Below the pieces are notes generated by a model. It worked only from the letters and a program-made list of their open reading frames with translations. It had not been told where the DNA came from and ran no database searches. A DNA stretch of 46,580 nt, counting the filler, from Jimgerdemannia flammicorona (Eukaryota): the NCBI GenBank assembly GCA_003990765.1. It is 2 parts of 2 records of this genome, joined end to end, with 100 filler letters (N's around TTAATTAATTAA, not from the genome) between each part and the next. Parts side by side here need not be neighbours in the genome. Positions count along the whole stretch, not along the records: positions 23,341 to 46,580 come from RBNJ01001133.1; 1 more part is not named here. One strand, given 5' to 3'. Shown one piece after another: positions 22,297-46,580 of the stretch; position 1 is the stretch's first letter; each line of letters begins with the position of its first letter. A program made the position numbers and the translations under genes.

Positions 22297-22364
22297 CCAG
22301 AAGTAGTTCATATCAGGGGGCAGGAGTTGTACATCGCAACCCGAGCCGACCCGTGTACATATTT

Positions 22365-22575
22365 TACCCGACTCGAAATTATACGTCACCCATCTTTAAC
22401 CTGACTCGGAATTATATGTCACCCATCTTTAACCTGACCCAGAATAATACGTCACCTGTCTTTAACCTGACCCGGAATAATATGTCACCTGTCTTTAACC
22501 TGACCCAGAATTATACATCACCCATCTTTAACCCAACCTGGAAATGTATGACACCCATCTTTAACCTGACCTGAG
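22365..22575 (+). repeat. 33-bp tandem repeat (~6 copies), probably subterminal repeats of a DNA transposon
   Basis: Unit ~CACCCATCTTTAACCTGACCCGGAATTATACGT, followed by shorter TGACCCGA units to ~22645. Confidence 0.8.
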
Positions 22576-22842
22576 AAATATATGTGACCCGACCCGAGAA
22601 ATATGCATGACCCGACTCAAGAAATATACATGACCCGACCCTGACTCATATTTAACCCAACACAGACCCATCTTTAATCCGCCTTCAAGCTACAAGGCAC
22701 CAAAAAAAATATATTGCACATCTAAGATATATATTTAGAATAAACAAACAGAAACATAATTTGGAATCAGAAATCAAAATGAAATCGGAAATAAATAGGA
22801 AGTAAATCAGGAAAATAAAGAACTTACCAGTGTGAACAGATC

Positions 22843-23240
22843 TTACTCTTCATCGCTATAAACCAACTGATCCTCCTCCTCTTCATCACTATAAACCAAC
22901 TGATCCTCCTCCTTCTCATATTCCAAACCATCTTCCTCCATATATTCTGAACCACTTTCCTCTATATCCTCCTCCTCCATATCCTCCTCTGGGCCAACCT
23001 CCTCTGCGCCAACCTCCATTTCGTCCTCTGCACCGACCTCCCCGTGTTCCTCCGCACCGACCTCCCCATGTTCCTCCATGCCGACCTCCCTGTGTTCCTC
23101 CGTGCCGACCTCCCTGTATTCCTCCGCACCGACCTCCCCCGCGCCGACCTCTCCATGTTCCTCCGCACCAATCTCCCCTGTGCCGACCTCTCCATGTTCC
23201 TCCATGCCGACCTCCCCCGTGCCAACCTCCCCCACACCGA
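22843..23240 (-). other. Acidic low-complexity reading frame with 24-bp (EEHGEVG[A/T/M]) repeats, truncated by the gap
   Basis: ORF-track protein ...EEHGEVG...EEEDQLVYSDEE; product unknown. Confidence 0.45.
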
Positions 23241-24639: not shown

Positions 24640-24721
24640 TGTAAGTACACAACCTCCAAGCCACTGAAATTATATGTCACTCTCTGAACAAATCTGGAAA
24701 TCACCTGCTTGATCACAAAGC

Positions 24722-24827
24722 TGAGTCAAACCGAAGTCACAGCGCACAAAGCTGAGTCAATATGAAGTCACAGAACACAAGATTTATACAAATGGAATCT
24801 TACCAATCAGGATCAAATGCATATATA
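24722..24827 (+). promoter_or_regulatory. Putative promoter of the LTR-embedded gene
   Basis: TGAGTCA at 24722 and 24753, CCAATCA ~24803, TATATA 24822; G-poor leader ending in CAAAC-ATG; conserved in all three B LTRs. Confidence 0.55.
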
Positions 24828-24896
24828 CCAAGCACTGAGATGTATCGAATCAGAGAATCAAAACAAACAACAACCACAACTTCTAAACATACAAAC

Positions 24897-25994
24897 ATGA
24901 CTACTGAGATCTATACCCATATCCACGCTGACATTTGGAATGCCATTATCAATAGAGCCACACCCCCTCTGCCCCTCATGAATATCTATAGTCTAGCACC
25001 CCTCTACTTCGTGGAAGCCCAATGGAATGCTCTGAACATGCTTAGTGAGGCCTACCGAATTGGACAAATCTCAAGCTACTACTAGATCAGCCACCTCCTG
25101 AAAGACATAATCGAGCACCACCATGATACAGACATTACCCAGATGTCCCAACACCAGAAGCTCATTGCCCGCAAATATCAAGAACTCTTCTATGAGTATA
25201 GTACCATTATTTTCTATCTCCAAGTTACCACCAGTGAAATGGTCGCTACCCTATCCTATGGCCAAATTGATGACATGATACAAGAACTCAACCACAAGTA
25301 TCTCGAGTATGTTAAAACTACAGACAGAATCTTCCCACACCCCAATGATTATATCCTGCAAATGCTCTAAGTTGGATATGCCATGAAGGACATCTATGAT
25401 ATAATCCACTTTGATGAAGATGAAGCAGAAGACAATGATCCCTCTGACACCGACATGATCTCTAGCCAAGGATCTCTGCCAACCCTGATCACACTGCCAA
25501 CCTTGCCAATGAACTTACAACAATTCATAACAGCCTACAAGACTTATTAGGACAATGACCACTAGCACGAATGCCAACCTACATTTACCCCCAATTACTT
25601 CAACTACAATGAAGAGACTGGAGAACACAACCTGTACCTCCAGACAACCCTTGAGATTGAACCAACCACTTTACCACCCAAGTACAAGCGACATAAATTA
25701 TAGCCACCAGCTTACTACAACCCTGTGACTCATAGTACCATAACCTATAGAAGGTATACAGATAGTGAAACCAATAAAAGTGAAGATAATACACCCCTCC
25801 TTTGCTCACTAATACCTTACCCAGCATACGAGACTGATGATGCTATCTTGTGGAATAGAGATAAAGTTCCAATGTATTATTACCTCAGCAAACAAGGAGA
25901 AGTAATCCATGAACCACTTTTCCTGGATGACTACTTTATCAGAGATGATGCAATTGATAGTGATGTCATTGAGGACTACCCAGATAGTGCCTAA
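24897..25994 (+). pseudogene. LTR(U3)-encoded 365-aa protein, B2 copy
   Basis: 1098 bp ATG-to-stop, MTTEIY...DYPDSA*; interrupted only by transition-type stops. Confidence 0.85.
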
Positions 25995-28686
25995 ACCATA
26001 AATAGCCTAGCAGTCATAGTATAGTTAGATTAGCCTTATATGATGTGACTGTAAACTGACTCAATCTCTTGACATATCAGATCACACTTGTACTACATGA
26101 CTGCATTCTAACTCAGCAAAGCACTTAGTACTACATCTATATCTAGCATAGTCCAGATAGCCCCTCACTAGTATAAATACCCCTTCTCCCAGACCTCAGA
26201 ATCTCAGACTCAAATGTACAAGAACATTCCTAAACACTTCTCTACAATATCCCTTTACACAACAACTCCTAGTATAGCAATATCATGAATAGCGAATAAA
26301 CCTATTTAATAACCCATAAACCACTCTTAAGTAAATCTGCTCCCTGTTAGGTTCCACTCCTAACCCCATCATGAAAATTCCTACTTGGGTATTATCTGCA
26401 GCGATACACCAATTCAACTAAGCTGGTCTTAGTTTCTTGAACTTCTTGAAATATGGAAAACCCTGAACATCCAGAACTAGTCCGAAAAAAGGACTTTAGT
26501 TGAGACGTCAACCTGATCTTGAAATCAATAAGCGTAGAGGATATACTCCATACAAAATTGATCTTGACTATAAGAAAACAGTCTTCCAGAATATCTAGAA
26601 CTTCCAGAAAACCCTTCCAGAACTACATAATGGTTACCTTAAATAGCAATCCTCTTACAACTTGATAGCAGTGGTTTACAATCCAATTCTGCTTCAAGAT
26701 GCTTCCTCACCCCGCTACAAACCCCTCTGCGAATTCCTACAAGTTGGTATAAAGCCCAACCTCTGAACTGGAATTTATCCAAACCATCTGACAATCTGGA
26801 GAGAATTGAACCTGATGTACAAGGACAATTTGACCTCCACACCTGCAACAAATAGGATAAACTTTATTCAAAGAAAGAAGTACTCCGGTTAAACCAGCAA
26901 ATAGGTGAAACCCTATTCACTGAACTCCTTGCACTACATCCAGCAAGTCAAGATGAAGAAGGTCTTATTGAAGCCTTCTTTACTCTTCTCAACAAGAGTT
27001 TTGTCAGCTCCACAAATCTGAGCGATCTAGAACAACCAGCAGCAGTCTTTCTAGCCTTAGTTCCTCATGAAGCCCAAGCCTCTGTAGCCAAGTGGCTCAA
27101 CTCTACTGACTTTCACTGTACCAGGACCAAGACCACATTATACTATCGATTCCAGAATAGCAAGGCCTACCATATTCTTAAAAAAGAAGCAAGAGAAACC
27201 CTTCATTAACTACCTGACCCCAAACCTGAAACAGACCCTGCTACAGCCCTACCTGAATCTGAAACCAATACTGAACCTGAACTTGACTTTGAATTAAGTC
27301 CATCTGAAATCAGATATACAACTGATTCTGTCTACTTTGACGCTGAGCAAACCCAATTATATGGGGACCAAACTGAAGAAGAGGAGGAGTATCTTAGTGA
27401 ATTCGATCCCAGATATACCACTGAAGGAGAAGTACCTCCATCAGGACAGAATACACCTATACAGCAACAAATAGTTATCTATCAAGCCCTCACTCCAGAC
27501 CCACAACTACTACTCCAGCAACTTACATAGACCCAAAGAACCCCATCACACTCTGCACCAGTACCTCAAATAGTACCAGTAATACCACTATCAGTAGTCC
27601 AATTACCTCCAGTAAACAATATAGCGAACCAACAGATTCTAGACCTCACAGCCCAGGTAGCTATAATGGCAGCAACCATTACTGCCTTAGCTGAACAGAC
27701 CTGACCTACCAAAAATCTGAGCCTACCTACCTTCAATGGTACTGCACAAGAAGTCCAAAGCTTTATTAGTATAGTTGACACTAACTTCAAAGCCAATCAA
27801 TAGACTAATGAGTGAGTTGCTGACCGTGTTCTGACAAACAATCAAGACCACACTCTGGAACAACTCTTTGCTACCACTACAGCCTATGTTCGCTGAGTTG
27901 TTACATTCTTCCAAGAACCTGCCAAAGAATAGTGGCAAATCCTTCCTGAAAAACCCCTCACATGGGATACCTGATCTGCAGTAGTTGCTCAGAATGTAGC
28001 AAACAATGCCTGTAAGAGAGTTACTATTTAGGGTAACTGTTACATAGTTCTGGAAAGGTTTTCTGGATATTCTAGATGTTCTGGAAGACTGTTTTCTTAT
28101 GGTCAAGATCAATTTCATATGGAGTATGTCCTCTATACTTATTGATTTCAAGATTGGGTTGATGTCTCAACCAAAGTCCTTTTTCAGACTAGTTCTGGAT
28201 GTTCAGGATTTTCCGTATTTCAGGAAGTTCAAGAAACTAAGACTAGCTTAGTTGAATTGGTGTATCACTGCAGACAATACCCAATTAGGAAATTTCGTGA
28301 TGGGGTTAGAAGTAGGACCTAACAGAGAGTGGATTTACTTAAGAGTAGTTTGTGGGTTATGGAATAGGTTTATTTGCTATTCATGATATTGCTATACTAG
28401 GAGTATTTGTATGAAGGGATATTGTGGGGAAGTATTCAGGAATGTTCTTGTGTGTTTGAGTCTGAGATTCTGAGGTCTGGGGGAGGGGGTATTTATACTA
28501 GTGAGGGGCTATCTGGACTATGCTAGATATAGATGTAGCACTAAGTACTTTGATGAGTCGGAATGCAGTCATGTAGTACAAGTGTGATCTGGTATGTCAA
28601 GAGATCGTTGGACTGCTGAGTCAGTTCACAGTCACGTCATACAATGCTAATCTAACTATACTATAACTGCTAGGCTATTTATGGGT

Positions 28687-29784
28687 TTAGGCACTGTCTG
28701 GGTAGTCTTTGATGACATCACTATCAATGACATCATCTCTGATAAAGTAGTCATCTAGGAAGAGTGGTTCACGGATTGCTTCTCCTTGTTCACTAAGGTA
28801 GTAATACATTGGGACTTCGTCTCCATCCCACAGGATAGCATTGTCTGTCTCATAGACTAGATAAGGTGTTGGTGGACAAAGGATGGGTGTATTGTCTTCA
28901 CTTTCGTCAGATTCACTGTCTGCATACCTTCTATAGGTTACAGCACTATGAGTTGCAGGATTGTAGTAAGCTGGCGGCTGTGGTTCATGTCGCTCATACT
29001 CAGGTGGTAGTGTAGTTGGTTCGATCTCAAGGGTTGTCTGGAGGTACAGGTTGTGTTCTCCAGTCTCTTCATTGTAGTTGAAGTAATTGGGAGTGAATGT
29101 AGGTTGGTATTTGTACCAGTGGTCATTGTCCCAATAAATTTCATATGTGGTTATGAACTGTTGTAGGTTCATTGGCAAGGTTGGTGGAGTAATTAGGGTT
29201 GGCAGAGATCCTTGGCTAGAGGTCATGTCAGCATCAGAGGGATTATTGTCTTCTGCTTCATCTTCATTGAAGTGGATTATATCGTAGATGTCCTTTATGG
29301 CGTATCTGACTTGAGGTATTTGCAGGATATGGTCATCAGGGTGCAGGAAGGTTCTGTCTGTGGTCTGGATGTATTCGAGGTACTTGTGGTTGAGTTCTTA
29401 TATCATATCATCGATTTGGCTATAGGACAGAGTAGCAACCATTTTACTGGTAGTGACTTGGAGACGAGGAATAAAGGTGTTGTACTCATAGAAGAGTTCT
29501 CAATGTTTGCGGGTGATGAGCTTCTGGTGTTGAGACATCTGGGTAATGTCTATATCATAGTGGTGTTCAACCATGTCTTCCAGGAGGCGGCCAATCTGGT
29601 AGTAGCTTGAGATTTGTCTGATTCAGTGGGTCTCGCTAAGCATGTTCAGGGCATTCCATCAGGCTTCTACAAAGTAGAGGGGTGCCAGGCTATGGATATT
29701 CATGAGGGGCAGAGGGGGTGTAGCTCGGTTGACAATGGTATTCCAAATATCAGTGTGGATGCAGTTGTAGATCTCAGTAGTCAT
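28687..29784 (-). pseudogene. LTR(U3)-encoded 365-aa protein, B3 3' LTR copy
   Basis: 1098 bp, same frame throughout; CGA->TGA stop at ~29657. Confidence 0.85.
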
Positions 29785-30519
29785 GTTTGTGTGTTTGGAA
29801 GTTATGGTTGTTGTTTGTTTTGGTTCTCTGATTCGACATGTCTCGGTGCTCAGTATATATGCATTTGGTCCTGATTGGTACATAAGATTCCATTTGTGTA
29901 AATCTTGTGTTCTGTGACTTCGTATTGACTCAGCTTTGTGCACTGTGACTTCGGTTTGACTCAGCTTCGTGATCAAGCAGGTGATTTCCAGATTTGTTCA
30001 GAGGTCGCATGTAATTTCGGTGGCTTGTTCAGAGTGTGACATGTAATTTCGGTGGCTTAGAGGTTGTGCGCTTACAACTCTCCCCTTCTTAGCTTTCGAC
30101 GTCCTCGTTGGGGCCTTCTAATTTGTTCTAGTGTTGTTATACCATTTGGGAGGTCAAAAGTCTGGTAAGGTTCATTTTCTCAGAAAGTGGCATACTTATA
30201 GTACAGTTGCCTAACACGTTGGATTCATATGTTAAAGGGTCGTGTATTCAATACCATATGCCGGAAGTGATTCTGATGTCATTCACTGCTGGAGAATTTT
30301 CTCTAAAGAATCTTCTTAAATATCTATGCCTTGTTTCCCACCAGTGGTACAGGGAGAATAGGCTTACTTTCAGTTTTGCTATTTTTTCAGGGGTTCGGTA
30401 TTCTTGTCTTGTTTTGCTGAGTTCTTGGTTTGGTTCACAATAATTATAATGTTCAGGAGGATAATATATAGTATGTATGAATAGGTGCAGAATATTTGGT
30501 TCTAGTTGTTCAAGGAATC

Positions 30520-30670
30520 ATATTCCTGAACTAGGTCAGTAGCATTCTGGAGATTGGTCTTGAGTTCCCAGATTGCATCGTGGATCAGGTAACTTTTCCA
30601 TTTGACAAGGTACTCCAGATAGTTCTTGTTGCCACATTTGTTGAGGATTTGTTCAACTTCATACTCTTCT
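30520..30670 (-). other. Chromodomain at the integrase C-terminus
   Basis: EYEVEQILNK...EYLVKWKSY...AIWELKTNLQNATDLVQEY. Confidence 0.92.
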
Positions 30671-33600
30671 TGGTTATTAATAATGATAGGTGCAGGTGGT
30701 TTGGTGGTCCGATTTGGAAATAGCTTGTCATCATTGTCATTATATCACTTGAGACGTTGAACATTAAAGACTGGGTGAATCTTAATAGTGTCTGGTAGCG
30801 CTAGTTTGTAGGAGGTTGGAGAGACTTGTGCAATGACTTCAAATGGTCCAATGAACTTGCTGTTCAGCTTAGTAGATGGTCTGTGCTTGAGGTTATCAAC
30901 TCAGTATCCTCTGATATCTAGTAGGACGTTTTCTTCAATATCAAAGGTTTCTTCTCGGCAGTGTTGGTTAACATACTGTGACTGTTGTTCTTGAGCTCGT
31001 GATAAATTCTTAATTGCGATCTGACCTAGATTGTGCATTCGGAGTAGGAATTCTTCAACAGCTTCGACTGTGGAGGGTTTATCGGTAGTTTGGATAAGTG
31101 TCAAAGGGGTGTTCAGGTTTTGTCCAGTATTGGCGAAGAATGGGGTCATTCCAAGAGAGGCTTACTTGCTATTGTTGTAGGCAAACTCAACTGCAGTGAG
31201 GTGTTCATGCCAGTCATCTTATCTGTAAGAAACATAGTTCCTTAGCATTTGTTCCAGAGTTCGGTTCATTCTTTCAGTTTGGCCATCAGTTTCTGAGTGA
31301 AAGGCTGTGGATAGTGCAAGTTTTGTTCCAAGGTATGCATAGAGGGCTTTCCAAAAGTGGCTGGTGAATTTCGGATCTCAGTCACTAATAATGATCTTAG
31401 GAAGACCATGATAGTGGAAGATGTTGTCAAACAAGAGTATGACTATGTCTGGTGCTGTTGCAGTAGTGGTAGTAGGCACAAAGTGGGCTTGTTTGCTGAG
31501 GTAGTCTACAAAGACAACAATTGCATCTTTCCCATTCTTGGTTCGGGGTAGTTGTACAATGAAGTCTATAGAGATTTGTTCCCAATTTGCAGATGGTACT
31601 GGAATAGGGTGGAGTAAGCCGGGTTTTGCTAATGTTGAGGACTTGTTTCATTGGCAGACATCACAGGAAGTAATGTAGGTTTTGAGCTGATCTGCCATGC
31701 GGGGCCAATAGAAGTTTTGGGAGATAACTTCATAGCATTTGTCAAATCCTAAATGTCCAGCTGTAGGGGCATCATGACATTCAAATAGGATAGTCCTTCA
31801 GAGGTCTTGGTTGTTTGGAACATACAATCTGTTCTTATAGTAGATAGCATTGTCCTTGAGTTGGTATTGATTATACCAGGTATGCTTGTCAGCATCATCA
31901 TTGTTCAGGATTTCTCGGAGTGCTTGAGCTTCTTTATCATCAACATATACTGCAATGATTTGTTCTATGATAGTGTTGGTAACCAAGGTCAGAGTTTGGA
32001 TAACCTCTTCGATTGATGGTCTGGAGATTGCATCAGCAACAATATTTTCCTTGCCAGAGCGGTACTGGATTTTACATATAGTCAAAGTTGGTAAGAACTT
32101 TCATCCATCTGGCTTGCTTTCGGGAAAGGATAGCCTGTGTCTTGATGTTGACTAATGACTTGTGGTCAGTCAATACCATGAAGTGTGCTCCTTCTAGGTA
32201 TGGTTGCCATTTGATCAGAGTGTCTATGATGGCTAGCATTTCCTTCTCGTGAGTTGTATAGTTGATTTCGGTATCATTGAACTTGCGGGAGTGATAGGCC
32301 ACAGGGTGTCCTTCTTGCATGAGTACTGCTCCAAGAGCTAGGTCAGAGGCATCAGTAGTGACTTTATATGGTAGGGCAGAGTTTGCTGCTTGAAGTACTG
32401 GAGTGGTTATCAAGGCATCCTTCAGTGCTTGAAAGGCGGTATCTTGTTCATATCCCCAATTTACAAGATTGTTGAAGTCTTTCTCTTATTTCATGGTCCA
32501 AGGTTGTTCTTGTTTCTTGCTGTGCTTGGTCATTTGGGTGAGGGCAGTAGCGATTTTAGCAAAGTTGGCAACGAATTGCCTGTAATAGTTTGCTAATCCT
32601 AGGAATGACTGGAGGTCTTTCAGCTTCTTGGGTCTGGACCAATCCTTGATTGCAGAGATTTTGCTGGGGTCCACTTTGATTCCATTTGGTGTGACAATGT
32701 GTCCAAGGAATTGAATTTCTTTCAGAAGGAATTCACACTTGCTGAGTTTTGCAAAGAGTCGGTTTTCTCGGAGTTTCAGTAGTACTAGTTCAAGGTGTTC
32801 AAGATATTCCTCCAGGGTTTTACTAAAGACTAGGATGTCGTCAATGTAGACAACAATGAATTTGTCTAGGTATGGATGCAGAATGGTATTCATCAGTATC
32901 TGGAAGGTTGCTGGAGCATTAGTTAAGCCAAAAGGCATAACCAGGAACTCGAAGTATCTATAGCGAGTTCAGAAAGCTGTCTTGTAGATTATCTTCTTCT
33001 TTCATGGCAATTTGCCAGTAACCATTTCACAGGTCAAAAGAGCTCATGAATTGTGGGTTGGTAAGTCTATCGAATATTTCATCGATCCTTGGTAGTGGGC
33101 AACAGTTCTTGATGGTCTGTTCATTGAGATTGCAGTAGTCAATGCACATTCATAGGTCTCCTCCTTTCTTGACAACGAAGAGGACTGGTGCACCATAGGG
33201 GGATATGCTGGGTCTGATGAATCCTTGTTCTAAGAGTTCGTTGATTTCCTTCTTGAGTGCATCAATTTCTCTCGGAGACATGTGGTAGGTTGACTTGAAG
33301 GCTGGTTTGGCATCTGGGATAGTCTTGATGGCATGATCTACTGCTCGTTTGGGGGGTAGGCCTTTCAGGAGCTTCCTTGGGAATATGTCTCGGAATTTCT
33401 GGAGTAGTGGTCTGACACGGCTGTCAACTTTGGAAAAATCTTCTTCAGAGTTCTCAGGTTCTCCTTTGGATGGTCGGATGGAGATGGCGAAGAGAGGGCA
33501 TTTCTTGGCCAATTTCTTGAGTTGTAGCTTGTTGATGTAGGTGATCTTTGGTCCAGGGTCACTAGAGTTGAGTAGGTCCTTTTCACCTTGTAGTTTGAAG

Positions 33601-34166
33601 TTGTGGCATCCTTTCTTGATGGTCAGAGAGTGGTTTACCCAATCAATCATGGAGTTCTCTTGTTTCAACCATGGAGTTCCAAGGATGATTTCATTGTCAG
33701 GAAGTGATACGATTTGGAGGGTAACATGTACTCGGTAGTCACTAATTCAGAAGGGTAGATTGCAGACTTCTTTGCTAATAACATGTGAGGTTCCATCAGC
33801 TGTAGCAACTGCTTGAGTTTGTTGTACTGGAGAGGTGAAGACCTTGAGTCTGTTGGTTGTTTCTTCATTGATGAAGTTGCCTGAAGTGCCACTGTCTATC
33901 ATAATCTTGACAGGTGCTCCGTTGACAAAAGCTTTAAGGGTGAGCAGTTTGTCCGATCCAATTGTGGTGATTTCAGTTGTAGGAGCCTTTCTTCTGTTGG
34001 TTCTTCTTTGAGCCAGTTCATTGATACAAGAGAAGCAATCATCAATCATTCGGGAAGAGTACATTCCAATACCATAAGGGCATCGGCCACTTAGTACATA
34101 TCCATCTTCTATCTTCTTGTAGAATTGTTCTTCTTTGCTCATAGTAGGTTGGGCTGGGGCCTTGTT

Positions 34167-34574
34167 TGATGAGCCAAATCCTTTGGATCCTCGGATGGTG
34201 GGCAGTAGTTCAGGGACTTCCTTGACTATCAGGGTTGACTCGATTTTTTCGAATAGGATCTGCGCGATGCAGAAACCAATAGGGATTTTGAAGGGTGTCC
34301 AACTGTGGTTTCGGATGAGGACAATGATTTTGCCTGTATAATCTTCATCAATGACTTCTCCTTCTACTGAGAGTCCTTTCAGTGCTAGGCTGCTGTGACA
34401 GCATATTCTTCCAACATGTCCTTCAGGGATTTGAATACTGATTCCTGTATAGACTTGTTTGACTTCTTGGTTAGAAACTGTAGCTTCTTCAGCTGCATAC
34501 AGGTCATATCCAGCTGCTTTTTGACTTCCTTTGGTTGGGGCCTTAGTAGTTTGTCTTAGCTTGACAAAGTCTAG
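34167..34574 (-). pseudogene. Trimeric dUTPase domain in the B3 polyprotein
   Basis: KGSQKAAGYDLY, HSSLA, EVIDEDYTG, IAQ, RGSKGFGSS. Confidence 0.95.
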
Positions 34575-37279
34575 TGTTCTGGTGGTCAGGTTGTTGAGGT
34601 GGTGCAGAGTTGTAACAGTTGCTCATATTGCTGTTCAGGGTTTTTGGTTGGGGCAGGCACTGGCTATGTGTCCTGTCTTTCGGCAATAGAAGCATGCTCT
34701 GCTTCTTTGAAGTTTGTTCCTTTCACCTTTAGTAAGTTTCTTGAAGGTACTTGGCTGGGTGGGTTCAGGATTTCTGGGTGTCCAAGAGGTGAATGTGGAG
34801 GGAGCTCGGGATGCTTCATGCTTGGGTTCTTCTTTCTTGGTCCAAGTCTTTTCCTTATTGTTGAATTGCCTTCGGGGCAGAATTGGTCCAGCTGTTAGGA
34901 TTCGCTTGACCATAGTCTTGATTCTTACCAGGCACCATTGTTGGTGATCACAACCAACTGGGCAGCCTTGTTCTCTGATTTTTCTAGTAAGCCATTCAGG
35001 CAGTGCATCGAATAAATGGTCTGCTCTTGTACCATTTCGTGCTTCATCATTGGCGATATATCCTAGGCCAACAGTGTTCAGGAGTGACTCGAGTTTTGTA
35101 CAGAAAGTTTCAAATTCTTCCTTGCCATGTATATCAAATTTGAGGTTGCAGAGTTTTACTCGAGATTCGGCAATCATGGTTTCACTGCGGTATTGAGCAA
35201 TCATGAGTTGTTTGAGTCCAGGGGCTGCAGGATGGGCTCCATATCCTGGGGCATTGTTTGCTGTATTCTGAGCAACTACTGCAGGTCAGGTATCCCATAT
35301 GAGGGGTTTTTCAGGAAGGGTTCACCACCATTCTTTGGCAGGTCCTCGGAAGAATGTAACAACTCGGCAGACATAGGCTGTAGTTGTAGCAAAGAGTTGT
35401 TCCAGGGTATGGTCTTGATTGTTTGTCAGAATGTGGTCAGCAACTCGCTCATTGGTCCATTGATTGGCTTCAAAGTTGGTGTCAACTATACTAATGAAGC
35501 TTTGGACTTCTTGTGCAGTACCATTGAAGGTAGGTAGGCTCAGATTTTTGGTAGGTCAGGTCTGTTCAGCTAAGGCAGTAATGGTTGCTGCCATTATAGC
35601 TACTTGGGCTGTGAGGTCCAGAATCTGTTGGTTCGCCATGTTGATTGCTGGAGGCGGTTGGACTGCTGGTAGTGGTGTTACTGGTACTACTTGAGGTACT
35701 GGTGCAGAGTGTGATGGGGTTCTTTGGGTCTGTTTAAGTTGCTGGAGTAGTAGTTGTAGATCTGGAGTGAGGGCTTGATAGATAGCTGTTTGTTGCTGTG
35801 TAGGTGTATTCTGTCCTGATGGATGTGTGTCTCCTTCAGTGGTGTATCCGGGATCGAATTCAGTGAGATACTCCTCCTCTTCTTCAGTTTGGTCCCCATG
35901 TAATTGGGTTTGCTCGGCGTCAAAATAGACAGAATCAGTTGTATATCTGATTTCAGATGGACTTAATTCAAGGTCAAGTTCAGGTTCGGTATTGGTTTCA
36001 GATTCAGGTAGGGCTGTAGCAGGGCCTGCTTCAGGTTCTGGGTCAGGTAGTTGATGAAGGGTTTCTCTTGCTTCTTCCTTAAGAATATGGCGGGCCTTAC
36101 TGTTCTGGAATCGGTAGTATAATGCGGTCTTGGTCCTGGTGCGGTGAAAGTCGGTAGAGTTGAGCCACTTGGCTACAGAAGCTTGGGCTTTGTGAGGAAC
36201 TAAGGCTAGAAAGACTGCTACTGGTTGTCCTAGGTCACTTGGATTTGTAGAGCTGACAAAACTCTTGTTGAGAAGAGTAAAGAAGGCTTCAATAAGACCT
36301 TCTTCATCTTGACTTGCTGAGTGTAGTGCAAGGAGTTCGGTGAATAGGGTTTCACCTATTTGCTGGTTTAACCGGAGTACTTCTTTCTTAGAATGAAGTT
36401 TGTCCCACTTGTTGCAGGTGTGGAGGTCAAATTGTCCTTGTATGTCAGGTTCAATTCTCTCCAGATTGTCAGATGGTTCAGGATAAATTCCAGTTCAGAG
36501 GTTGGGCTTTATACTAACTTGTAGGAATTTGCAGAAGGGTTTGTAGTGGGGTGAGGAAGCGTCTTGAAGCGGAATTGGATTGTAAATCACTGCTACCAAG
36601 TTGTAAGAGGGTTACTTTTTAGAGTGACCATTATGTAGTTCTGGAAGAGTTTTCTGGAAGTTCTGGATATTCTGGAAGACTGTTTTCTTATGGTCAGGAT
36701 CAATTTCATATGAAGTATGTCCTCTACACTTATTGATTTCAAGATTGGGTTGACGTCTCAACCAAAGTCCTTTTTTGGACTAGTTCTGGATGTTTAGGAT
36801 TTTCCATATTTCAGGAAGTTCAAGAAACTAAGACCAGCTTAGTTGAATTGGCGTATCGCTGCAGACAATACCCAATTAGGAAATTTCGTGACAGGGTTAG
36901 GAGTAAGACCTAACAGGGAGCGGATTTACTTAAGAGTGGTTTGTGGGTTATGGAATAGGTTTATTTGCTATTCATGATATTGCTATACTAGGAGTAGTTG
37001 TATGAAGGGATATTGTGGGGAAGTGCTCAGGAGTTGTGTTCAAATTGTTCAAGTCTGAGATTCTGAGGTCTGGGGGAGGGGGTATTTATACTAGTGAGGG
37101 GCTATCTAGACTAGGCTAGATATGGATGTAGCACTAAGTGCTTTGCTGAGTCAGAATGCAGTCACGTAGTATAAGTGTGATCTGACATGTCAAGAGATCG
37201 TCTGACTGCTGAGTCAGTTCACAGTCACATCATACAAGGCTAATCTAACTATACTATGACTACTAGGCTATTTATAGGT

Positions 37280-38381
37280 TTAGGCACTGTCTGGGTAGTC
37301 CTTGATGACATCACTATCGATTGCATCATCTCTGATGAAGTAGTCATCTAGGAATAATGGTTCGTGGATTACTTCTCCTTGTTGGCTGAGGTAGTAATAT
37401 ATTGGGACTTCATCTCCGTCCCACAGGATAGCATCGTCTGTTTCATATGCTGGATAAGGTGTTGGTGGGTGAAGAATGGGTGTACTGTCTTCGCTTTCAT
37501 CGGATTCACTGTCTGCATACCTTCTATAGGTTACAGCACTATAAGTTGCAGGGTTATAGTATGCTGGCGGCTGTGGTTCATGTCGCTCGTACTCAGGTGG
37601 TGGAGTGGTTGGTTCGATCTCGAGAGTTGTCTGAAGGTACAGGTTGTGTTCTCCAGTCTCTTCATTATAATTAAAGTAATCGGGGGTGAACGCAGGTTGG
37701 TATTCGTGCCAGTGGTCATTGTCCCAATAAGTCTCGTATACAGTTATGAACTGTTGTAAGTTCATCGGCAAGGTTGGCAGAGTGATCAGGGTTGGCAGAG
37801 ATCCTTGGCTAGAGGTCATGTCGGCGTCAGAGGGATCATTGTCTTCTGCTTTATCTTCGTCGAAGTGGATTATATCATAGACATCCTTCATGGCATATCT
37901 GACTTGAGGCATTTGTAGGATGGGGTCATCAGGGTGCGGGAAGGTTCTGTCTGTCTGTGGTTTCGACATACTTGAGGTACTTGTGGTTGAGTTCTTGTAT
38001 CATGTCATCGATTTGGCTGTAGGACAGGGTAGCAACCATTTTGCTGGTAGTAACTCGGAGACAGGAAATAAAGGTGTTGTACTTGTAGAAGAGTTCTCGA
38101 TGTTTGTGGGCGATGAGCTTCTGGTGTTGAGATATCTGAGTAATGTCTGTATCATGGTGGTGTTCGACCATGTCTTCCAGGAGGCGGCTGATCTGGTAGT
38201 AGCTTGAGATTTGTCCGATTCGGTGGGCCTTGCTAAGCATGTTCAGGGCATTCCATCGGGCTTCCATGAAGTAGAGGGGTGCCAGGCTATGGATATTCAT
38301 GAGGGGCAGAGGGGGTGTGGCTCGGTTGACAATGGTATTCCAAATGTCAGCATGGATGCGGTTGTAGATCTCAGTGGTCAT
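37280..38381 (-). pseudogene. LTR(U3)-encoded 365-aa protein, B3 5' LTR copy (intact except for one 4-bp duplication)
   Basis: ORFs 37929..38381 and 37280..37969 join after removing an extra CTGT at ~37947-37958; 1102-4=1098 bp. Confidence 0.9.
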
Positions 38382-38669
38382 GTTTGTGTGTTTGGAAGTT
38401 GTGGTTGTTGTTTGTTTTGGTTCTCTGATTTGACATGTCTCGGTGCTCAGTATATATGCATTTGGTCCTGATTGGTAAGGTTCCGTTTGTGTAGATCTTG
38501 TGTTCCGTGACTTCGTATTGACTCAGCTTTGTGCACTGTAACTTCGGTTTGACTCAGCTTCGTGATCAAGCAGGTGATTTCCAGATTTGTTCGGAGGTCG
38601 CGTGTGATTTCGGTGGCTTATTCAGAGGGTGACGTGTAATTTCGGTGGCTTGGAGGTTGTGCACTTACA

Positions 38670-41600
38670 CCTTCCTGAACCCCCTCACCTTTTGTCCCTA
38701 AGACAAATGAGTTGCTACTAGAAGATGAAGAAATGGAATAAGAAGAACAGAAACCTGCTGCCCCAAAGCCCAAGAAGAAGTACACTCCAAAGATCATGCC
38801 TAGAGATATCTACAATGAAGCCTGACAGAAGATTCAAGAGACCAAGATGGAGGTCCCTCTTCTGTAGTTCCTGTAACTAATACCAGCTGGAGTCTGAAAC
38901 AAATTATTGAGAACCATCAGATCTAGCACTGGCCAAGTCCCTATCCCACAGCAAGAACCAGCTTCCATTCTTGTTCAGGCCACAGAAAGACATATTAGTA
39001 CCTATTTACATAGAGATATTAGAGAACAAAAAGCAAAAATCCTCATAGATACAGGAGTAGCTATCTGTGTTATTGCCAAATGATTCCTGGACACCCTCTA
39101 ATAGCCCATTGATGAACCATCTAACCTCAGCATCATAGTAGCAGATAGAGCCCAAATTCAACTTCTTAGAGAAGTATAAAATATCACTATCTCTCTTGGA
39201 CACATTCAGTTCTCCATCTCCAAAGCTATTGTTACAGAAGCTGTCATCTATGATATAATTCTTGGCACTAACTGGATGAAGGAAATGAATGCAGTTGTTG
39301 ATATTGGTCAACAAGTACTCAAGTTTGACTACCAAGACAAGAAGTACAGAGTTAAGGTGACCAGCTATAAGCAATCAAAGAAGAAGAAGAAGGTCACTAT
39401 TCAGGAGAAATATATTAGCAGTGAAGAATCTACCACAGAAGAAGAGGAAAAATCTGAAGATGGAAATGATCCCAGACTCAACCCCTGAATTAATCTGGTA
39501 GATAACAGACCAGAAGTCAATGTGTGGGCCAAGAATACCATCCCTATCACCATTGGAGCCATTGCAGGAGAAATCAAAGGATGCCCTACCTGCCTCAAGA
39601 GACACAAGTATCCTGAGCATTCCTCCAAGATCATGGGAACAAGGAAATTGCCTGATACAGTCTGCCTAGAGTGCAGAAAAAAGAAGAAGAAATGTAGATA
39701 TATTTCAGAAATATCTACAACTGAAGCTGCAGAAGTACAAGTAATCTGAAGTCAAGAATCATCCAAGGAAGAAGAAACTTCTGACCAAGAAGTTCCTGAA
39801 CAAGAAGCACCTGAAGAAGAAGAGATCTCTAAACTCATTCCCTGGGATGATCCTCACTGGACACTACCTGAAGACAATGACCCTTGGAATACAGAAGAAA
39901 GACCCAGCACAATCACCATTATCCTCAAGAAAGAAACTCACCAAGAAAAGGCTTTTTAACTAGGAAAATGTCTATACCAAATGATCTTCCACTCTTCTCA
40001 AGACTACTGCTATCAGTGCCATTTATTAGACCAATAGGAGAGACAGAGACCCCAGAGACCAGAACCCCTGAACACAGTTGCACAGTCAACTATCTTCTAA
40101 GAAGTTACCACTAAGCTGTAAAGCTGATTCAGTAGACAAGGCCTCTTCACCCAGACAGAAGTATATCTCTTGTTTACTCTTCTATCTACTTATGACCAAG
40201 ATGGATACTGATTCCTAAAATAACAAGAGATCAATAACCAGGAATATCATTTCCAAGCAATGGGATATTGTAACCATAGAAGACACCCAGACTGCCAAGA
40301 CTGCAGGCATCAGAAGATCCATCTCAGTCATGATGTTGCAGTTCACACTTTGAAGAGAGGAGATAATCAAAGCCAGATCCAAAAAAGTAGACCAAAAAGC
40401 CAGGAAGAAGGACCCTCAAGATCTATAATTTAGGAGAAGACATCAGACATACAACCTACCAAGGATGGGCAGAAGATGCCACCAACTTTATAGAAGCCCT
40501 AGACTCTACAGGAAGAAGAGAAATCAACTATCTCTGAGATCCCTCTACTGGAGCCAGATGGCCACACCTCAACCTCAGAGCTTGGAGACTCTCTGCTAGT
40601 GGAGCTTCAGCCTTAGAAAAGCTCAAACTTAGCAAGGATATTACCCAGTATGCCCTGCTGCATCTCAAGGCCAAACCCCTGACCAAAGCCCACCCAGTAT
40701 GATCTTTATAGTCTGGAGGATGAATCTATCAAACCTGGAAAAACCTTTATGATCAGAACCAGATTAGCCATGCAGCCACCCCAAGGAGCTTACATCCAAC
40801 TGACCTCAAGGTCTGGACTTGCCAGATAAGGAATAACTGTGGAAGGAGGAACTATTAACCCAGGATATATAGGCGAAATCAAGGTCATTCTACACAACAG
40901 TAGTACATAATGGCACTGAATCATTAGAGGACAGAAGATTGCCCAAGCAGTCTTCATGAAGGTCAAGACCTCACAATTACAAGAAGTCTCTGAATTGACT
41001 GAAGGGACAAGACAAGCCAAAGAATTTGGAAGTTTAGACAAGAAGAAAGTATACCTCCTTCAAGTTAACCACCTCAAGAGGAATATTCTCCAGCAAGTGT
41101 ACTAGCAATCAGTCAGATTGCACAAGAATCTTATCCTAAAGTCTGGAGAAAAAACTACCTTCGAAATCTTTGCACCACCTGATCCCAGAAATCTTTTTTT
41201 TGAACCTAAAGAAGATATCCCCCACCTGGACATAGAGGGATACACATTCCCTGATAAGATGAACCCAGTATACTCCTGAGCAACCAACCAAAGTTGAGAA
41301 ACCATCATCTTGCCAAAAGGAACTATCATAGGACACCTAGTACCTTATCTCAACCAAACTTATAGGGATGTTTATAAACTAAACCTATCAGGAAATGGCA
41401 AAAGGTCCCAGAAGAAAGGAAAGGCCCCTCTGCGACCCAGGAGACAGTGAAGCCTTCTACCAATATTAGAGAAGAATTGACACCCCAACAATAGCAACAA
41501 CTAGTAGAACTTCTCAACAAATATCAAGATATCTTCACTATCAATTATGACAACCTGCCATACAACCCATCATATCACTATAGCATAAATATAGAAAATA

Positions 41601-44600
41601 TAACACCCATCTGGCAGAAATCCTATAGAATATCCCATCACTTAAAAACATTCGAAAAAGAACACATTTAAGAACTCTTAGACAATGGAGTCATTTGACT
41701 CTCCATCAGCTCCTGGGCCAGCCCTATACTTATTGTACCAAAGAAAAGAGGATGGAGACTCTGTGTAGATTATAGGAAACTCAATTCAGTTACTGAAAAG
41801 GACACCTATTCTTTGCCCAGAATTGACAACCTCTTGGATCAGTTATAAGATACCAGATACTTCAGCAGTATGGACCTTTTCACAGAATTCCATGAGATCC
41901 CAAAGACATTTAAAAGACAGCCTTCCTTGCTCTAGGAAAACTGTTTGAATATCTCTGAATGTCCTTTGGACTCTGCAATATACCCCCCCACCTTTTAGAG
42001 GATGATGAATTCAGTCTATGCTCTCTTGATCCACCACTATCTTATTGTATATATAGATGATTCCAACATCTACTCAGCAAATTTTGAAGAATACCTGCAA
42101 AAACCACTTGAGACTGAATGTAAAGAAATACTACTTTGGAAAACAGAAACTTGAATTTCTTGGATTCATAGTTTCAAAAGAAGGAACCCATATAGATCCA
42201 AAGAAAACTGAGAAGATCAACAATTGGCCAGTATCCAAGACCCCAAAGAAAATATTATTATTTCTGATGCTAGTATCCTACTACAGAAGATTTATCAAGA
42301 ATTTTGTCCAAATTGCTGCCCCAATCTAAATCCTTCTCAAGAAAGAAGTGTTATTCAAATAGACAGAATCACAAGAAAAAGCCTTCAAAGAACTCAAGAA
42401 CTACATGACTATAGCACCAATCCTCATGTACCCCAATCTATAGAAGTCATTCATCTTATATATAGATGCTTCTAAAGATGGCCTCAGAGCAGTTTTAGCC
42501 CAAGAAGGATCTGATCAACAATACCATGTGATAGCTTATGCAAGCAGAGCTATCAATCAGCAGCAGATGAACTATGGTAGCACTAAACTGGAATACCTTG
42601 CAGTCATATGGGCAGTCACCCTGTTCAAGCATTATCTTATCAGAAAAAGATTCACTCTGATTATAGACCATATAACCCTTAAATAGCTATTCAACTGTAA
42701 GGAACTCACTGGAATCCTAGCCTGCTGGATCCTTATCCTTCAGGATTACAAGATCACTATCATCCACAAAGTAGGGAAAGCTCACAACAATGTTGATGTA
42801 CTTTCCCACCAGCTCCAATAAACCAGAAGAAGGGTGTCCCAAGGAACTACACTCTAAAGGAAGCTCCTCAGACCATCAAGGTACAAGAAAATCTCATCTG
42901 AAAAGAATATCAGAAAGCTCACCAAGGACAGATAAATATAGAAGAGAAGTTGTAAATAATACACCAATACTGGCCTAACTTCAGAATACAAGTTCAGGAT
43001 ATACTCAAGAAATGTAACATCTACCAAAAGTACCAAGGAAGGAAGAACTATCAAGCACTATTGTAACCAATCACACTACTAGACAACATCTTTCAGAGAT
43101 GGAGAGTAGATGTAATTGGACTGCTACCAGTTACACCAAGAAGAAACAAATATATTCTTATATTTGTAGAATATCTAACCAAGTGGCCCAAGGCTTTCCC
43201 AATGGAAATTACAGATGCCTTAACCATTGTAGGCCTTCTCCATGGACTCATACTTAGATATGGACCTCCAGAAGAACTCATCTCTGACTGAGGCACAGAA
43301 TTCATCAATAACATAATTACAAGTTATATCTAAATTCATAAGATCCACCTCAAATGGACTACATCATACCACTCTCAGATTAATGACATAACAGAGAGAA
43401 TGAACCAGACCATTAAGAAAGGACTTGTCTGAGTCAATCCTATCAATTGAGACATCTGCTTACTTGAAATCCTATGGGAAATTTGGAATACCCCTGTTAC
43501 CTCCACTAAATAAAAGCCATTCAAAATGATGTTTGTTAAGAAAATCAGAACTACTGACCATAAGAATCTCAGAGATCTTCTCAAGAAGGCAGAACAGTTA
43601 TGTAATCAAGCCTGAGATCAGATTGTCAAAGCCCAAGAAAGATAAAAAAAAGTATTATAACCAGAAATAGAAGGATCAGAAGATCAAAATTGGAGATCAA
43701 GTACTAGTTTGGAGAAGCATAATTGAAACTAATTTTGCCACCAAATTGGAGCCCAAATGGGAAGAATCTTATCTTATATACAATATTAGAGGAACTAGCA
43801 TCTATTTAAGAAGTATAGATGGATGAACCCTGAGAACACCAGTATATATCAATTGCCTCAAACTATATCTTCCCTCTATACTATGAGCCAAAGGATTGAT
43901 CAGTACCTCCAGACATTAGTCCTCAGCTCCTTCTAGGCCCTACTAGTTCCTCTACCCCAATTCAGCAAAGCTAATGGAAACCCCCTTCAGAAGATCCAAG
44001 TTCACTAAGAAAATCTCACCCTGGCCAGGTATCTACTACAAGTCCACTAACTGTAGGCCTATTATACAATTGGTGAACAATTGTAGAACCTTCCAGCCCC
44101 AGAGCAGACCTATATCAGGAACACCACAGGTCTGACCAGAAGAGATACTACTGCTGCAGACAGACTATACACTATTTACAAATGAAATGTCACAGCTCTG
44201 ATACAGATGCAGTTCTCTCTGAATGATATTCAAGAAATGAATTCTATTACCTATTTGAGCATCATCAATTCCATTGAAATTCTATTCTCTAAAGAAGAAG
44301 AGCCCATAGAATAGAGTGACCCTAGTACAGACAATGAAGATGATGGAACAGGTATAGATACAAAAGTAGCTTATACTTATTGGGATGATAACTAAAGAAC
44401 AGTCTGAGGCAGACTATCCTTCAGTAGGGGCTGATGTAACAAATCAAACATATCACCTAAATCATAACTTAGCCAGATGATGTGAATAATTAGCATACTT
44501 AACCAGATGACATAGGCTCCCAGTATGACAACTAGTATATCATAGTTACTTATGCCACCATACTTATAATTAGCCAGACATATCAGATAGAATCTGTTTA

Positions 44601-45716
44601 CCTATATAGACTCTGTATACCTACTATAAGTAGCAAATCTATAGTTAGCTATATAGCAACTAGATAGCAACCAACTTGTATAAATTACCCTAAAGATAAG
44701 AGTGAATAAATCTCAGTCCAAATTGAAGTACAAACCAAAGAAGTCTCTAAAGATTGAGCATTGGTCTCCTTATTCCCACTCTGGTCTACTTTCTGATACA
44801 AAGCTTGAAGATTTTGCTGCCAAGTTTGAGTGAAGAACTTTGCCATCTTTGGAATTATTGGTATACTTGCCAGACTAAGCCTGAAGAACCCAAGTTTGCT
44901 GCCAAGTTCAAGGAAGAACTTCACCACTATTTCTAAGTTATTTGCTGCATTCTCAGAGAGCCTACCCTTCTTGCCATAAGCCAGTCTCTTGATGCAACTT
45001 TGCAATAATCTGTTCATACAAACAAAGCCAGTCTAGATATAACTTGCTAAGAATCTGAGTTATTTTGCAATTGAAGCTACCAATTTAGGAAGAATCTATA
45101 TCACCCAAGTAGTATTCCCAGAGAGCCACCAATTCAGGAAGAATCTGTATTATCCATCATTTTCAAGTTATCCATATTTCTAGAAGAGCCTGATTCACAC
45201 CATCTGAGTAATCTATTATTTCCAGTAAGCTCAAGTTATCAAGTTATCTATCACCAGCATTATTCCCAGTTAGAAAAACCTGTGCCAAATTGAGTTATCT
45301 GTCAGATTACCAGATTGCACTGTATAAGGAATCTACTTGTACTATACAGGATCATCACACAGAGATCATCACATTACATGGAGATCGTCATATAGAAATT
45401 ATATAAGAAGAACTGCCAAATTGCCAGACTATCATATATAAGGAAGATCATCACACTATATACAAAATTCTACCAATTTCCAGTTGACCCAAGAAGGAAA
45501 TCTATTTATACACAAATCACCACTACACCCAGAGAACTGTCCCAATAAGGAAATTACTTGCAAATATCTAGTTTTGACTATTATATCACTAAACACCAAG
45601 GACCTCAGAAATCTTAGAACATTTTGTTACTTTTTAACAAAGTAACTGAGAGCTCAAGCCAAACTACACCAACTCCCAACCTTGTAATTTGCCTCTATTG
45701 AGCCAGGTATGTTACA
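38670..45716 (+). mobile_element. Gypsy family A copy 2 (5'-truncated, more degenerate)
   Basis: Collinear with A1 from ~9315 onward: PR ILIDTG (~39030), dUTPase ~40646-41036, RT, RH, uninterrupted IN; PPT-like AGTAGGGGCTGA; 3' LTR 44435-45716. Confidence 0.95.
43883..44395 (+). pseudogene. Accessory ORF3 of A2 (170 codons)
   Basis: MSQRIDQYLQTLVLSSF*ALLVPLP...AYYTIGEQL...DRLYTIYK...SLNDIQEMN...YTYWDDN*; same ATGA overlap with the integrase stop. Confidence 0.8.
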
Positions 45717-45834
45717 GTATTAATAACTTAAATATACTTACATATATTAGATGTCTTTAGTTTAAGAAAGTAGTTATATATCTATATAATTAATCTAGTC
45801 TCTTTTGATAGATAGTACTCTAAATAAGCTAATT

Positions 45835-46267
45835 TAGATTTATTTAAAATAGCTTATAAGTGATATAATTTAAAGAGAATTCAATATATCAATATTATTA
45901 TTTTAATTTTCAAATTAGACAATTAAATATTTATATTAATAACTTGATAAAATATTATTCAATTTTAATAATTATAGTATTATTCAAAAGTTCTTAATAA
46001 GAACTTTCTAATAATATCAATAATATTGAAATTGGATAATATACATATTACTAAGTTATCAAGAAAAATATTCAACTTACATAACAATTTTGGAAATATT
46101 GATAACTTAGTAATATATTATCTAATTTCAATATTTTTAATATCATTAAAAAGAATCAAAATTAAATAATTTTTCAATATAAATATTAAATTATCTAATT
46201 TGAAAATTAAAATAATGATATTGATATATCAAATTATACTATCTATAAGCTACTTTGAATAGATCTA
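45835..46267. mobile_element. AT-rich foldback/MITE-like palindrome
   Basis: 45835-~45937 is the reverse complement of ~46176-46267; inner arms 46022-46062 and 46099-46135 also pair. Confidence 0.7.
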
Positions 46268-46580
46268 GATAGTACTCTTAATAAATTGAATCAAATTAAA
46301 TATTTAATTCAATTTGAGATTTAATTTGAACTTTATTTTTGAAATACATATAATAACTTAATAAAAATATGTCTAAATTTAATAATCTTTAGCTTATTAA
46401 ATTTGAATGTATTTTTATCAAGTTATTATATTTTAAAAAATAGTATTCAAATTGGACTCTTAATTCAATTTAAATTTAATTCAATTTAATTCAAACTTTA
46501 TTCAAATTGAAAAATTCTCAATTTGATTCAATTTGAATAACCTTCTTTTTTTTTTTTTTATATAGTCTCTTGGACTTTGC

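Follow-up and report, generated by a model that had tools for sequence, protein, structure and literature searches.

The window examined here is a 46,580-nucleotide stretch of DNA (filler included) from Jimgerdemannia flammicorona, joined from two records of GenBank assembly GCA_003990765.1 (positions 23,341 to 46,580 come from RBNJ01001133.1), and it holds two families of long terminal repeat (LTR) retrotransposons, A and B. This report concerns an open reading frame (ORF) of 365 codons that lies inside the LTRs of family B, a Ty3/gypsy chromovirus. Within the window, family B comprises a minus-strand element (28011-38669) and a truncated plus-strand copy (24640-28010), with three LTRs of ~2.05 kb that all start with TGTAAG and end with CTTACA. 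As delimited by three-way alignment and blastn, copy A (24640-26659, plus strand, 2020 bp) is the 5′ LTR of the truncated copy, whose internal part reaches 28010; copy B (28011-30076, minus strand, 2066 bp, 90.2 % identity to copy C) and copy C (36602-38669, minus strand, 2068 bp) are, respectively, the 3′ and 5′ LTRs of the minus-strand element. None of these three LTRs (0/3) is a solo LTR.

Translation of the LTRs revealed the same sense frame of 365 codons, with its stop, in each of the three, confirming the core observation of an earlier account made from the DNA alone (the sequence-only reading), which had placed the frame at these same coordinates in every family-B LTR of the window. It runs from 24897 to 25994 on the plus strand in copy A, from 28687 to 29784 on the minus strand in copy B and from 37280 to 38381 on the minus strand in copy C (LTR nt 289-1390), and falls wholly within each LTR. 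Copy A carries five private transition stops (codons 63, 158, 218, 223 and 269) and copy B four (codons 42, 54, 95 and 129); copy C, free of stops in both its parts, is thrown out of frame by an additional (third) ACAG unit within 37947-37958. All of the stops (9/9) are private to one copy, each being a single transition from a CAA, CAG, CGA or TGG codon that is kept in at least one other copy, and taking the majority base of the three copies at each column leaves 0 stops (as a count only). The copy-specific transition stops and the one 4-bp (ACAG) slippage are thus as the sequence-only reading had described them. The gene is non-functional at these three loci, all of them pseudogenes, and the decay of the three copies consists of CpG/CpA deamination-type transitions and one microsatellite slippage. 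No further copy of the frame was found in the window by tblastn and blastn.

The polypurine tract (PPT) of the minus-strand element, AAGAAGGGGAGAGT (30077-30090, minus strand), directly abuts the first base of the 3′ LTR (copy B), and the ORF therefore lies downstream of the PPT, i.e., inside the LTR. Metagenome contigs from two public runs that run off the LTR at 38669 carry on with the same polypurine letters as AAGAAGGGGAGAGT, so this LTR start is common to other copies. At the other end, TGGTAGCAGTGA (36587-36598, minus strand), which resembles a primer-binding site (PBS) as read from the sequence, lies 3 nt past the 5′ LTR (copy C); the homology between the 5′ and 3′ LTRs begins immediately past the PPT and stops 3 nt short of the PBS-like TGG. 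The minus-strand element has no target-site duplication (GAAGG vs GGCAT), and the plus-strand copy's internal region directly adjoins its 3′ LTR. It therefore probably arose by recombination between two insertions, and its two LTRs were treated as independent copies.

Coding capacity, selection and relatives of the frame

Four independent tests, namely openness, codon usage, an excess of synonymous changes and the existence of a diverged relative (P0001), favor a real coding gene, present or past, and we consider a selected coding gene inside the LTR, whether past or present, to be highly probable. When the frame was shuffled with its composition preserved, the shuffled sequences contained a mean of 16.3 in-frame stops and not one of them was open (0/20,000). 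In copies A and B the other two sense frames are interrupted by 15-45 stops, and in copy C's two parts by 4-24; the 1.25-kb LTRs of family A, which served as a control, have 12-22 stops in every frame and no long frame. Scored by codon log-odds, with gag-pol of the same element as training set, the ORF frame gives +0.18 to +0.30 bits per codon in all copies, compared with −0.40 to −0.70 for the off-frames and −0.10 to −0.61 for the remainder of the LTR, and the base composition of the ORF by codon position mirrors that of gag-pol.

Decay of the copies is strongly context dependent. On a sense strand that is A/C-rich and T-poor, C>T changes per site per copy amount to 0.22 at CpG, 0.11 at CpA, 0.06 at CpC and 0.03 at CpT, and G>A changes to 0.20 at CpG, 0.125 at TpG, 0.04 at GpG and 0.013 at ApG; classical repeat-induced point mutation (RIP) is not singled out by this spectrum because the CpG and CpA/TpG contexts are both affected. 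The same context dependence meant that a context-matched expectation was needed, and in the selection test each copy-specific change was redrawn among sites with the same mutation class and neighboring base (3000 simulations). The 215 copy-specific substitutions divide into 112 synonymous, 94 nonsynonymous and nine stop changes, against an expectation of 71.9, 129.6 and 13.7 (omega ~0.46), and the observed synonymous count (112) was reached in 0/3000 simulations. As controls, the two wrong frames of the ORF returned omega values of 1.41 and 1.72, and six frames of non-coding LTR returned 0.64-1.29, none of them significant.

The synonymous excess was found in each copy and in both halves of the ORF. 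Because it persists in the original frame of copy C past the frameshift (21/12/0 synonymous, nonsynonymous and stop changes vs 10.9/21.0/1.2 expected, P = 0.0003), the frameshift is a late lesion. Indels follow the same division between ORF and surroundings, with one in the 1098 bp of the ORF vs six in the ~940 bp of flanking LTR. In all likelihood, then, the frame was under past purifying selection while the element lineages replicated, and the copies in the window have since decayed, like gag-pol. The sequence-only reading had named a ratio of nonsynonymous to synonymous substitution rates (dN/dS) near 1 with frequent frameshifts, or a match exposing the frame as a fragment of an unrelated element, as findings that would speak against a gene; what was found is an omega of ~0.46, a single indel and no match of that kind.

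Relatives were sought in an exhaustive profile search covering 1.84 billion representatives of ~15 billion proteins, which returned two fragments, P0001 and P0002, each a singleton cluster from a contig of ~1 kb. P0002 (128 residues) covers codons 1-128 at ~84-87 % identity. P0001 (247 residues) aligns to codons 115-365, has the same C-terminus and is open throughout; in a pairwise alignment with the C-terminal part of copy C, 149/217 residues are identical (69 %), compared with 64-68 % identity to the window copies in the search-tool alignments, and its differences from the frame include two in-frame 2-residue indels and no stop. In neutral simulations run to the protein identity of P0001, 2.7-3.3 % of 2000 remain open, a comparison that is biased, as P0001 owes its database entry to an open frame recognized by a gene caller. 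This bias does not extend to the conservativeness of its replacements, for which the mean BLOSUM62 score is +0.18 vs −0.47 to −0.56 (sd 0.19) in the simulations, a value reached in only 0-2/2000.

Conservation between P0001 and the frame is uneven, with 1-10 differences in every 15 residues and a variance/mean of 1.42 (0.69 simulated, P ~0.01), and there are near-identical blocks around YQPAFTPDYFNYNE-TGEHNLYLQTT, around AYYNPATYSAVT and at the C-terminal EPLF-D-YFIRDD-ID. Two more profile-search matches, P0003 and P0004, were returned at E values of 4e-4 and 7e-4; P0003, a repetitive protein, looks unrelated. A word-index search among proteins of 30-69 residues gave no relative, and no relatives providing further DNA copies were found in JGI metagenome contigs, viral contigs or prokaryote genome contigs.

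Predicted product and presumed expression signals

The product is an orphan protein whose make-up is as the sequence-only reading had described it, with a helical N-terminal part and an acidic, Pro/Tyr-rich C-terminal part. Residues 1-~140 are near-neutral and are predicted by AlphaFold to form five or six helices. The 222 residues from 144 to 365 have a net charge of −38 and a pI of 4.05 and include 26 Pro (12 %) and 21 Tyr (9.5 %); they lack Cys, any basic cluster and any hydrophobic segment (maximum Kyte-Doolittle-19 score 0.8). The acidic make-up is kept in P0001 (net charge −36, pI 4.05). The lack of gag, pol and env motifs and of an obvious transmembrane segment, also noted in the sequence-only reading, agrees with this profile and with the outcome of the Pfam scan given below. 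Judged from composition and conserved blocks, the C-terminal 220 residues are probably a disordered acidic tail with short, strongly conserved binding motifs. PPxY motifs, present in copy C, are not conserved in P0001 and were dropped as candidates.

Sequence motifs on both sides of the ORF suggest how it might be expressed. Upstream of it in copy C lies a promoter-like module (38451-38558, minus strand), recognized from its motifs, with two GCTGAGTCAA repeats (38558-38549 and 38527-38518) and a TATATA (38456-38451). Upstream of the ATG, GCTGAGTCAA stands twice in every LTR, at a distance of 31 bp, and each repeat has a TGAGTCA core, which we take to be an AP-1/GCN4-type basic leucine zipper (bZIP) site, and all six occurrences of GCTGAGTCAA in the window are in the three LTRs (vs 0.06 expected). 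The TATATA stands ~70 nt before the ATG and is followed by a CA-rich leader, with A at −3. A scan for promoters of bacterial type was set aside as not applicable to a eukaryote.

Downstream of the ORF, a presumed genomic-RNA promoter (37083-37216, minus strand) is suggested by two TGACTCA motifs (37210-37216 and 37147-37153) and by TATAAATA, which is found at 26172 in copy A, 28490-28497 in copy B and 37083-37090 in copy C (LTR nt ~1580 in copy C). It thus lies downstream of the frame in all three LTRs, and the sequence-only reading had the order right in placing the frame upstream of the TATA box. An AATAAA (36960-36965, minus strand; LTR nt ~1705), presumably the poly(A) signal at the end of R, follows ~120 nt past this TATA box. 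Across the window, 11 of the 18 TGASTCA sites fall inside the 6.2 kb of the three LTRs. From the TATA and AATAAA motifs only, we infer that the ORF lies in U3, i.e., upstream of the start of the genomic RNA.

Together, these features suggest an LTR that would hold two tandem transcription units. The 5′ module, with its two TGAGTCA repeats, TATATA and CA-rich leader, would drive an ORF mRNA of ~1.5 kb that ends at the LTR's own AATAAA, making every LTR a self-contained cassette, and the second module past the ORF, with its two TGACTCA sites and TATAAATA, would start the genomic RNA and so make the ORF part of U3. The motifs make an own promoter, rather than a spliced or leader message, quite possible, if somewhat short of probable. 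From its composition only, the product would most likely be an adaptor or regulator that works in trans for the element, either an acidic protein that activates the LTR or a factor that counters silencing by binding chromatin or histones, rather than a structural protein or enzyme of replication; we put this role forward tentatively.

Alternative explanations

Several findings weigh against this proposal. All three copies in the window are broken, and an intact full-length copy was seen nowhere, P0001 and P0002 being fragments. The relatives found by the exhaustive search are only two, both fragments, and indicate a very narrow distribution. No Pfam family matched any of four ORF translations at E ≤ 1, gag, pol and env families included; the best match in a PDB sequence profile search had an E value of 0.29, which is noise; and the ORF has no neighbor in the ESM Atlas, where its 'recognition' value (1209) lies within the range of shuffled sequences (the Atlas gave no usable match for a piece of the family-A pol either). 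Confidence in the AlphaFold prediction is poor, with predicted local distance difference test (pLDDT) scores of 30.7 (full ORF) and 49.1 (N-terminal 142 residues) that do not warrant a fold search. The promoters are identified by motif, which is not evidence of function. In the selection test, the changes were polarized by the majority of three copies, a crude procedure, and the omega of 0.46 is moderate and mixes selected and neutral time. Divergence between copies is also higher in the ORF (10.8-15.8 %) than in the flanking LTR (5.2-10.3 %), which we read as free synonymous sites beside constrained cis-elements, with a protein that is still not highly conserved.

The frameshift of copy C adds a further point on the same side. 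In four metagenome runs (X1, X2, X4 and X5; contigs of DNA or unspecified kind), the 4-bp unit at 37946 is omitted in only part of the contig depth (128/356 in X1, 36.5/74 in X2, 52.6/110 in X5 and 5.07/5.07 in X4). The ACAG-frameshifted form may therefore be common among copies, a reading tempered by the shortness of the contigs and the ambiguous placement of gaps within the ACAG repeat; if true, it would argue that the C-terminal two-thirds of the product is dispensable in cis. From these contigs, the evidence used comprises the 4-bp indel, the continuations past the LTR start and the transition bias, with depth along the element and habitat set aside.

Whether the ORF is expressed as proposed is best judged against two other arrangements in which it is equally a real gene. 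One, which we regard as unlikely, makes the ORF a 3′-terminal cistron, in the position of env or ORF3, that falls in the LTR because the PPT in use lies upstream of it; it would be expressed from a spliced subgenomic RNA, and solo LTRs would be silent. Such expression is known from bdelloid LTR elements, which typically express their ORF3s from spliced messages as separate units (PMC5408684, in the part of the paper covered), and it would suit an ORF that is 3′ of pol and the PPT in the genomic RNA, in an LTR that begins with T followed by GTAAGT and has weak candidate CAG acceptors ahead of the ATG. However, no pyrimidine-rich acceptor is present before the ATG, where the repeated TGAGTCA and the TATATA instead stand at a promoter-like distance and are conserved in all three LTRs. 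The same TATATA and CA-rich leader, immediately upstream of the ATG, could alternatively mark the start of the genomic RNA itself, placing the ORF within an R of ~1.5 kb as the first cistron, with a leader protein of 'ORF0' type encoded at both RNA ends. Additional ORFs upstream of gag are on record for the plant elements Retrosat2, RIRE3 and RIRE8 (PMC3485330, in part), but this arrangement is improbable here: the canonical TATAAATA and two TGACTCA sites past the ORF, ~120 nt before the AATAAA, point to a conventional short R, and, as established retroviral biology would lead one to expect, an R of 1.5 kb would leave most transcripts cut short ahead of gag by the 5′ LTR's own poly(A) signal.

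That the frame is a chance frame or a passively carried fragment is very unlikely. A captured piece of a host gene or of another mobile element, open through recent capture and not through selection, would account for an orphan without an element-type domain, for divergence between copies above that of the flanking LTR and for the breakage of all local copies. It would sit poorly with a synonymous excess measured on changes that arose after the copies diverged, hence after any capture, with a codon usage equal to that of the element's own gag-pol, with the open and conservatively substituted P0001 at 69 % identity, and with the lack of any host-gene or other-element homologue in the exhaustive profile searches, and we judge it quite improbable. 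The further suggestion that there is no gene at all, only a stop-poor stretch kept open by its composition, with signals that are artifacts of context-dependent deamination, draws on the A/C-rich, T-poor sense strand and on the strong context dependence of mutation (rates of C>T per site per copy of 0.22 for CpG and 0.11 for CpA). It is largely refuted and scarcely credible: shuffles of that same composition average 16.3 stops, with 0/20,000 open, the selection test was matched for mutation class and neighbor and was flat in its two off-frame and six non-coding controls, and the LTRs of family A lack a long frame.

In light of these comparisons, we have considerable confidence that the family-B LTRs of this Ty3/gypsy chromovirus carry a real protein-coding accessory gene wholly inside the LTR. 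The complete explanation, that is, an LTR-borne accessory gene in an LTR of tandem units and with a regulator or adaptor as its product, is reasonably probable when weighted toward the part that has been shown. Its furthest extension, in which each LTR, solo LTRs included, would be an autonomous cassette for an acidic trans regulator of the family's LTRs or of host chromatin and silencing, with a dose that tracks LTR number, is speculative and rather unlikely. Of the inference drawn in the sequence-only reading, the genuine accessory coding gene in every family-B LTR stands (omega ~0.46); its retention by solo LTRs, a dosage that scales with LTR number and its candidate roles as trans-activator or anti-silencing factor stay conjectural, and the copies in the window have all turned out to be pseudogenes.

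Carrier element, known systems and surrounding sequence

The internal region of the minus-strand element (30091-36586, minus strand) was characterized by a Pfam scan of its three minus-strand frames, with X placed at stops, and reads gag (CCHC)-dUTPase-protease-RT-RNase H-integrase-SH3-chromodomain. The matches RVP_2 (6.3e-10), RVT_1 (6.7e-22), RT_RNaseH (3.9e-31) and Integrase_H2C2 (1.3e-19) follow the order protease-RT-RNase H-integrase, and Chromo (1.9e-10; 40.9 bits, cut-off 25.1) lies C-terminal of the integrase, following SH3_Tf2-1 (7.7e-16); the rve match is weak (22.9 bits, under the cut-off of 32.6), as is zf-CCHC. The dUTPase domain (34167-34544, minus strand; Pfam 3.1e-30) sits between the gag zinc knuckle and the protease. 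The carrier is thus a Ty3/gypsy chromovirus (Metaviridae) with an extra dUTPase; with its gag-pol broken up over three frames and interrupted by several stops, this element is dead. The nearest relatives of its integrase region are metagenome proteins (up to 54 % identity), and the best named ones come from Paraglomus occultum (48 % identity), Calcarisporiella thermophila and Entomortierella parvispora. With the occurrence of the sequence in soil and root metagenomes, these relatives point to an early-diverging soil fungus as host, probably of the Glomeromycotina/Mucoromycota grade. The 'fungal chromovirus' of the sequence-only reading fits both the domain order and the named pol relatives, which belong to Glomeromycotina, Mucoromycota and Mortierellomycota.

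Between the PBS and gag, a frame of ~330 codons without an ATG (35506-36494, minus strand), acidic and Pro/Thr-rich, is open from just past the PBS and continues up to and into what is presumed to be the gag Met (MANQQ...). The frame represents either a leader ORF or an extension of gag at its N-terminus whose start is lost or non-AUG. Paralogy of the LTR ORF with this acidic frame was considered and rejected (best E value 2.8).

Genes in LTRs are known from a few vertebrate retroviruses, and additional ORFs (aORFs) of retrotransposons have been described, in the literature covered, only between the LTRs. Sag of mouse mammary tumor virus (MMTV), a vertebrate betaretrovirus, belongs to the type II membrane glycoproteins; nef of human and simian immunodeficiency viruses (HIV and SIV) and bel/bet of foamy viruses overlap U3; Tas and Tax-type proteins use acidic activation regions to act on the LTR in trans; and the LTRs of Cassandra, a terminal-repeat retrotransposon in miniature (TRIM), carry 5S RNA genes. 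The closest positional match to the present frame is MMTV sag, an ORF of the 3′ LTR (PMC2118998, in the part covered) that, with ~320-370 codons in the sense of the provirus, is likewise present twice per element. Unlike Sag, the product described here has no hydrophobic segment or Pfam match (E ≤ 1), and it belongs to a fungal host and an element without env. For function, the analogy that we favor is with nef, bel/bet and Tas, which are likewise accessory, non-structural 3′ genes that reach into U3. Those genes, however, merely overlap with U3, and their RNAs are spliced or come from internal promoters, whereas here the whole ORF and a promoter-like module lie inside the LTR, and the Pfam and PDB profile searches revealed no sequence similarity between the present product and the accessory proteins of complex retroviruses.

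Among retrotransposons, the frame resembles the aORFs of Ty3/gypsy elements, such as ORF0 of Retrosat2 (upstream of gag-pol; PMC3485330), RIRE3 and RIRE8, the env-like ORF of Athila and ORF3 of bdelloid elements, which are lineage-restricted, of diverse or unknown function and often fast-evolving orphans (PMC3485330, PMC5408684 and PMC7264820, each as far as the text covered goes). Those aORFs are internal, in the interval from LTR to gag or in that from pol to the 3′ LTR, whereas this one is inside the repeat and present in both LTRs; the plant review nowhere uses 'in the LTR', 'within the LTR' or 'inside the LTR' (0 occurrences; PMC7264820). Podospora crapaud elements have LTRs with variable 5′ halves and, in the portion of the source covered, only gag and pol ORFs (PMC10787394). 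LTRs that carry an independently transcribed gene are found in foamy viruses, with LTR-borne microRNAs (PMC7104284, in part), and in Cassandra, with its 5S genes, but these are RNA genes transcribed by RNA polymerase III and not a 365-codon protein gene. The chromoviruses of Phanerochaete, Postia and Tuber share the gag-PR-RT-RH-IN-chromodomain plus dUTPase backbone; in fungal gypsy elements the dUTPase occurs at variable positions, and the part of that paper covered mentions no LTR ORF (PMC2864245), whereas the present element probably belongs to an early-diverging fungal lineage.

No example of a non-retroviral protein gene inside an LTR was found in the full-text literature searched, a scope that left most subscription journals and supplements outside. 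The frame lacks the sequence and topology that characterize Sag and does not share the internal location of aORFs; it is best described as a retrotransposon aORF placed inside the LTR as retroviral U3 genes are. A gene inside the repeat is duplicated at each insertion, is able to survive LTR-LTR recombination and lies beside the element promoter. If the proposal is true, a fungal chromovirus evolved a 'complex' regulatory architecture of its own, independently of Retroviridae, and the gene would be a testable candidate for how a very abundant soil-fungus element handles host silencing. Annotators who mask LTRs would never report such genes.

Several minor observations concern the LTRs and their junctions. 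A 31-bp tandem duplication near the LTR start (38589-38621 and 29996-30026, both minus strand) is present in copies B and C and missing from copy A, and the same 31 bp is skipped in two contigs of one metagenome run; it is therefore polymorphic among copies. Over 36701-37274 (R-U5), the summed contig depth is 2-3x that of the rest of the LTR in X1, X2 and X5, and in X4 in the first of two bins only. This segment may be common to other LTR subfamilies with a different U3, a lead only, as contig depth cannot rank the parts. At 28010/28011, the 3′ LTR of the minus-strand element adjoins the truncated internal region of the inverted plus-strand copy, and at 38669/38670 its 5′ LTR ends ~180 bp from a family-A fragment; these junctions suggest inter-element recombination or rearrangement and not simple nested insertion.

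Elsewhere in the window, family A, a second gypsy family, occupies 1000-12276 (minus sense) and 38847-43998 (plus sense; a partial inverted copy), and its 1.25-kb LTRs (1000-2252 and 11012-12276) share 92 % identity. A GC-richer island amid AT-rich stretches (21421-23237) contains a 291-codon Gly/Val-rich frame, with short-period acidic repeats (EVGAEEHG-like) on the opposite strand. The G+C content of 1-1000, 12000-21000 and 45000-46580 is 19-32 %, compared with 37-48 % in the retrotransposons, and these blocks may represent the host's normal AT-rich background and not RIP-degraded repeats.

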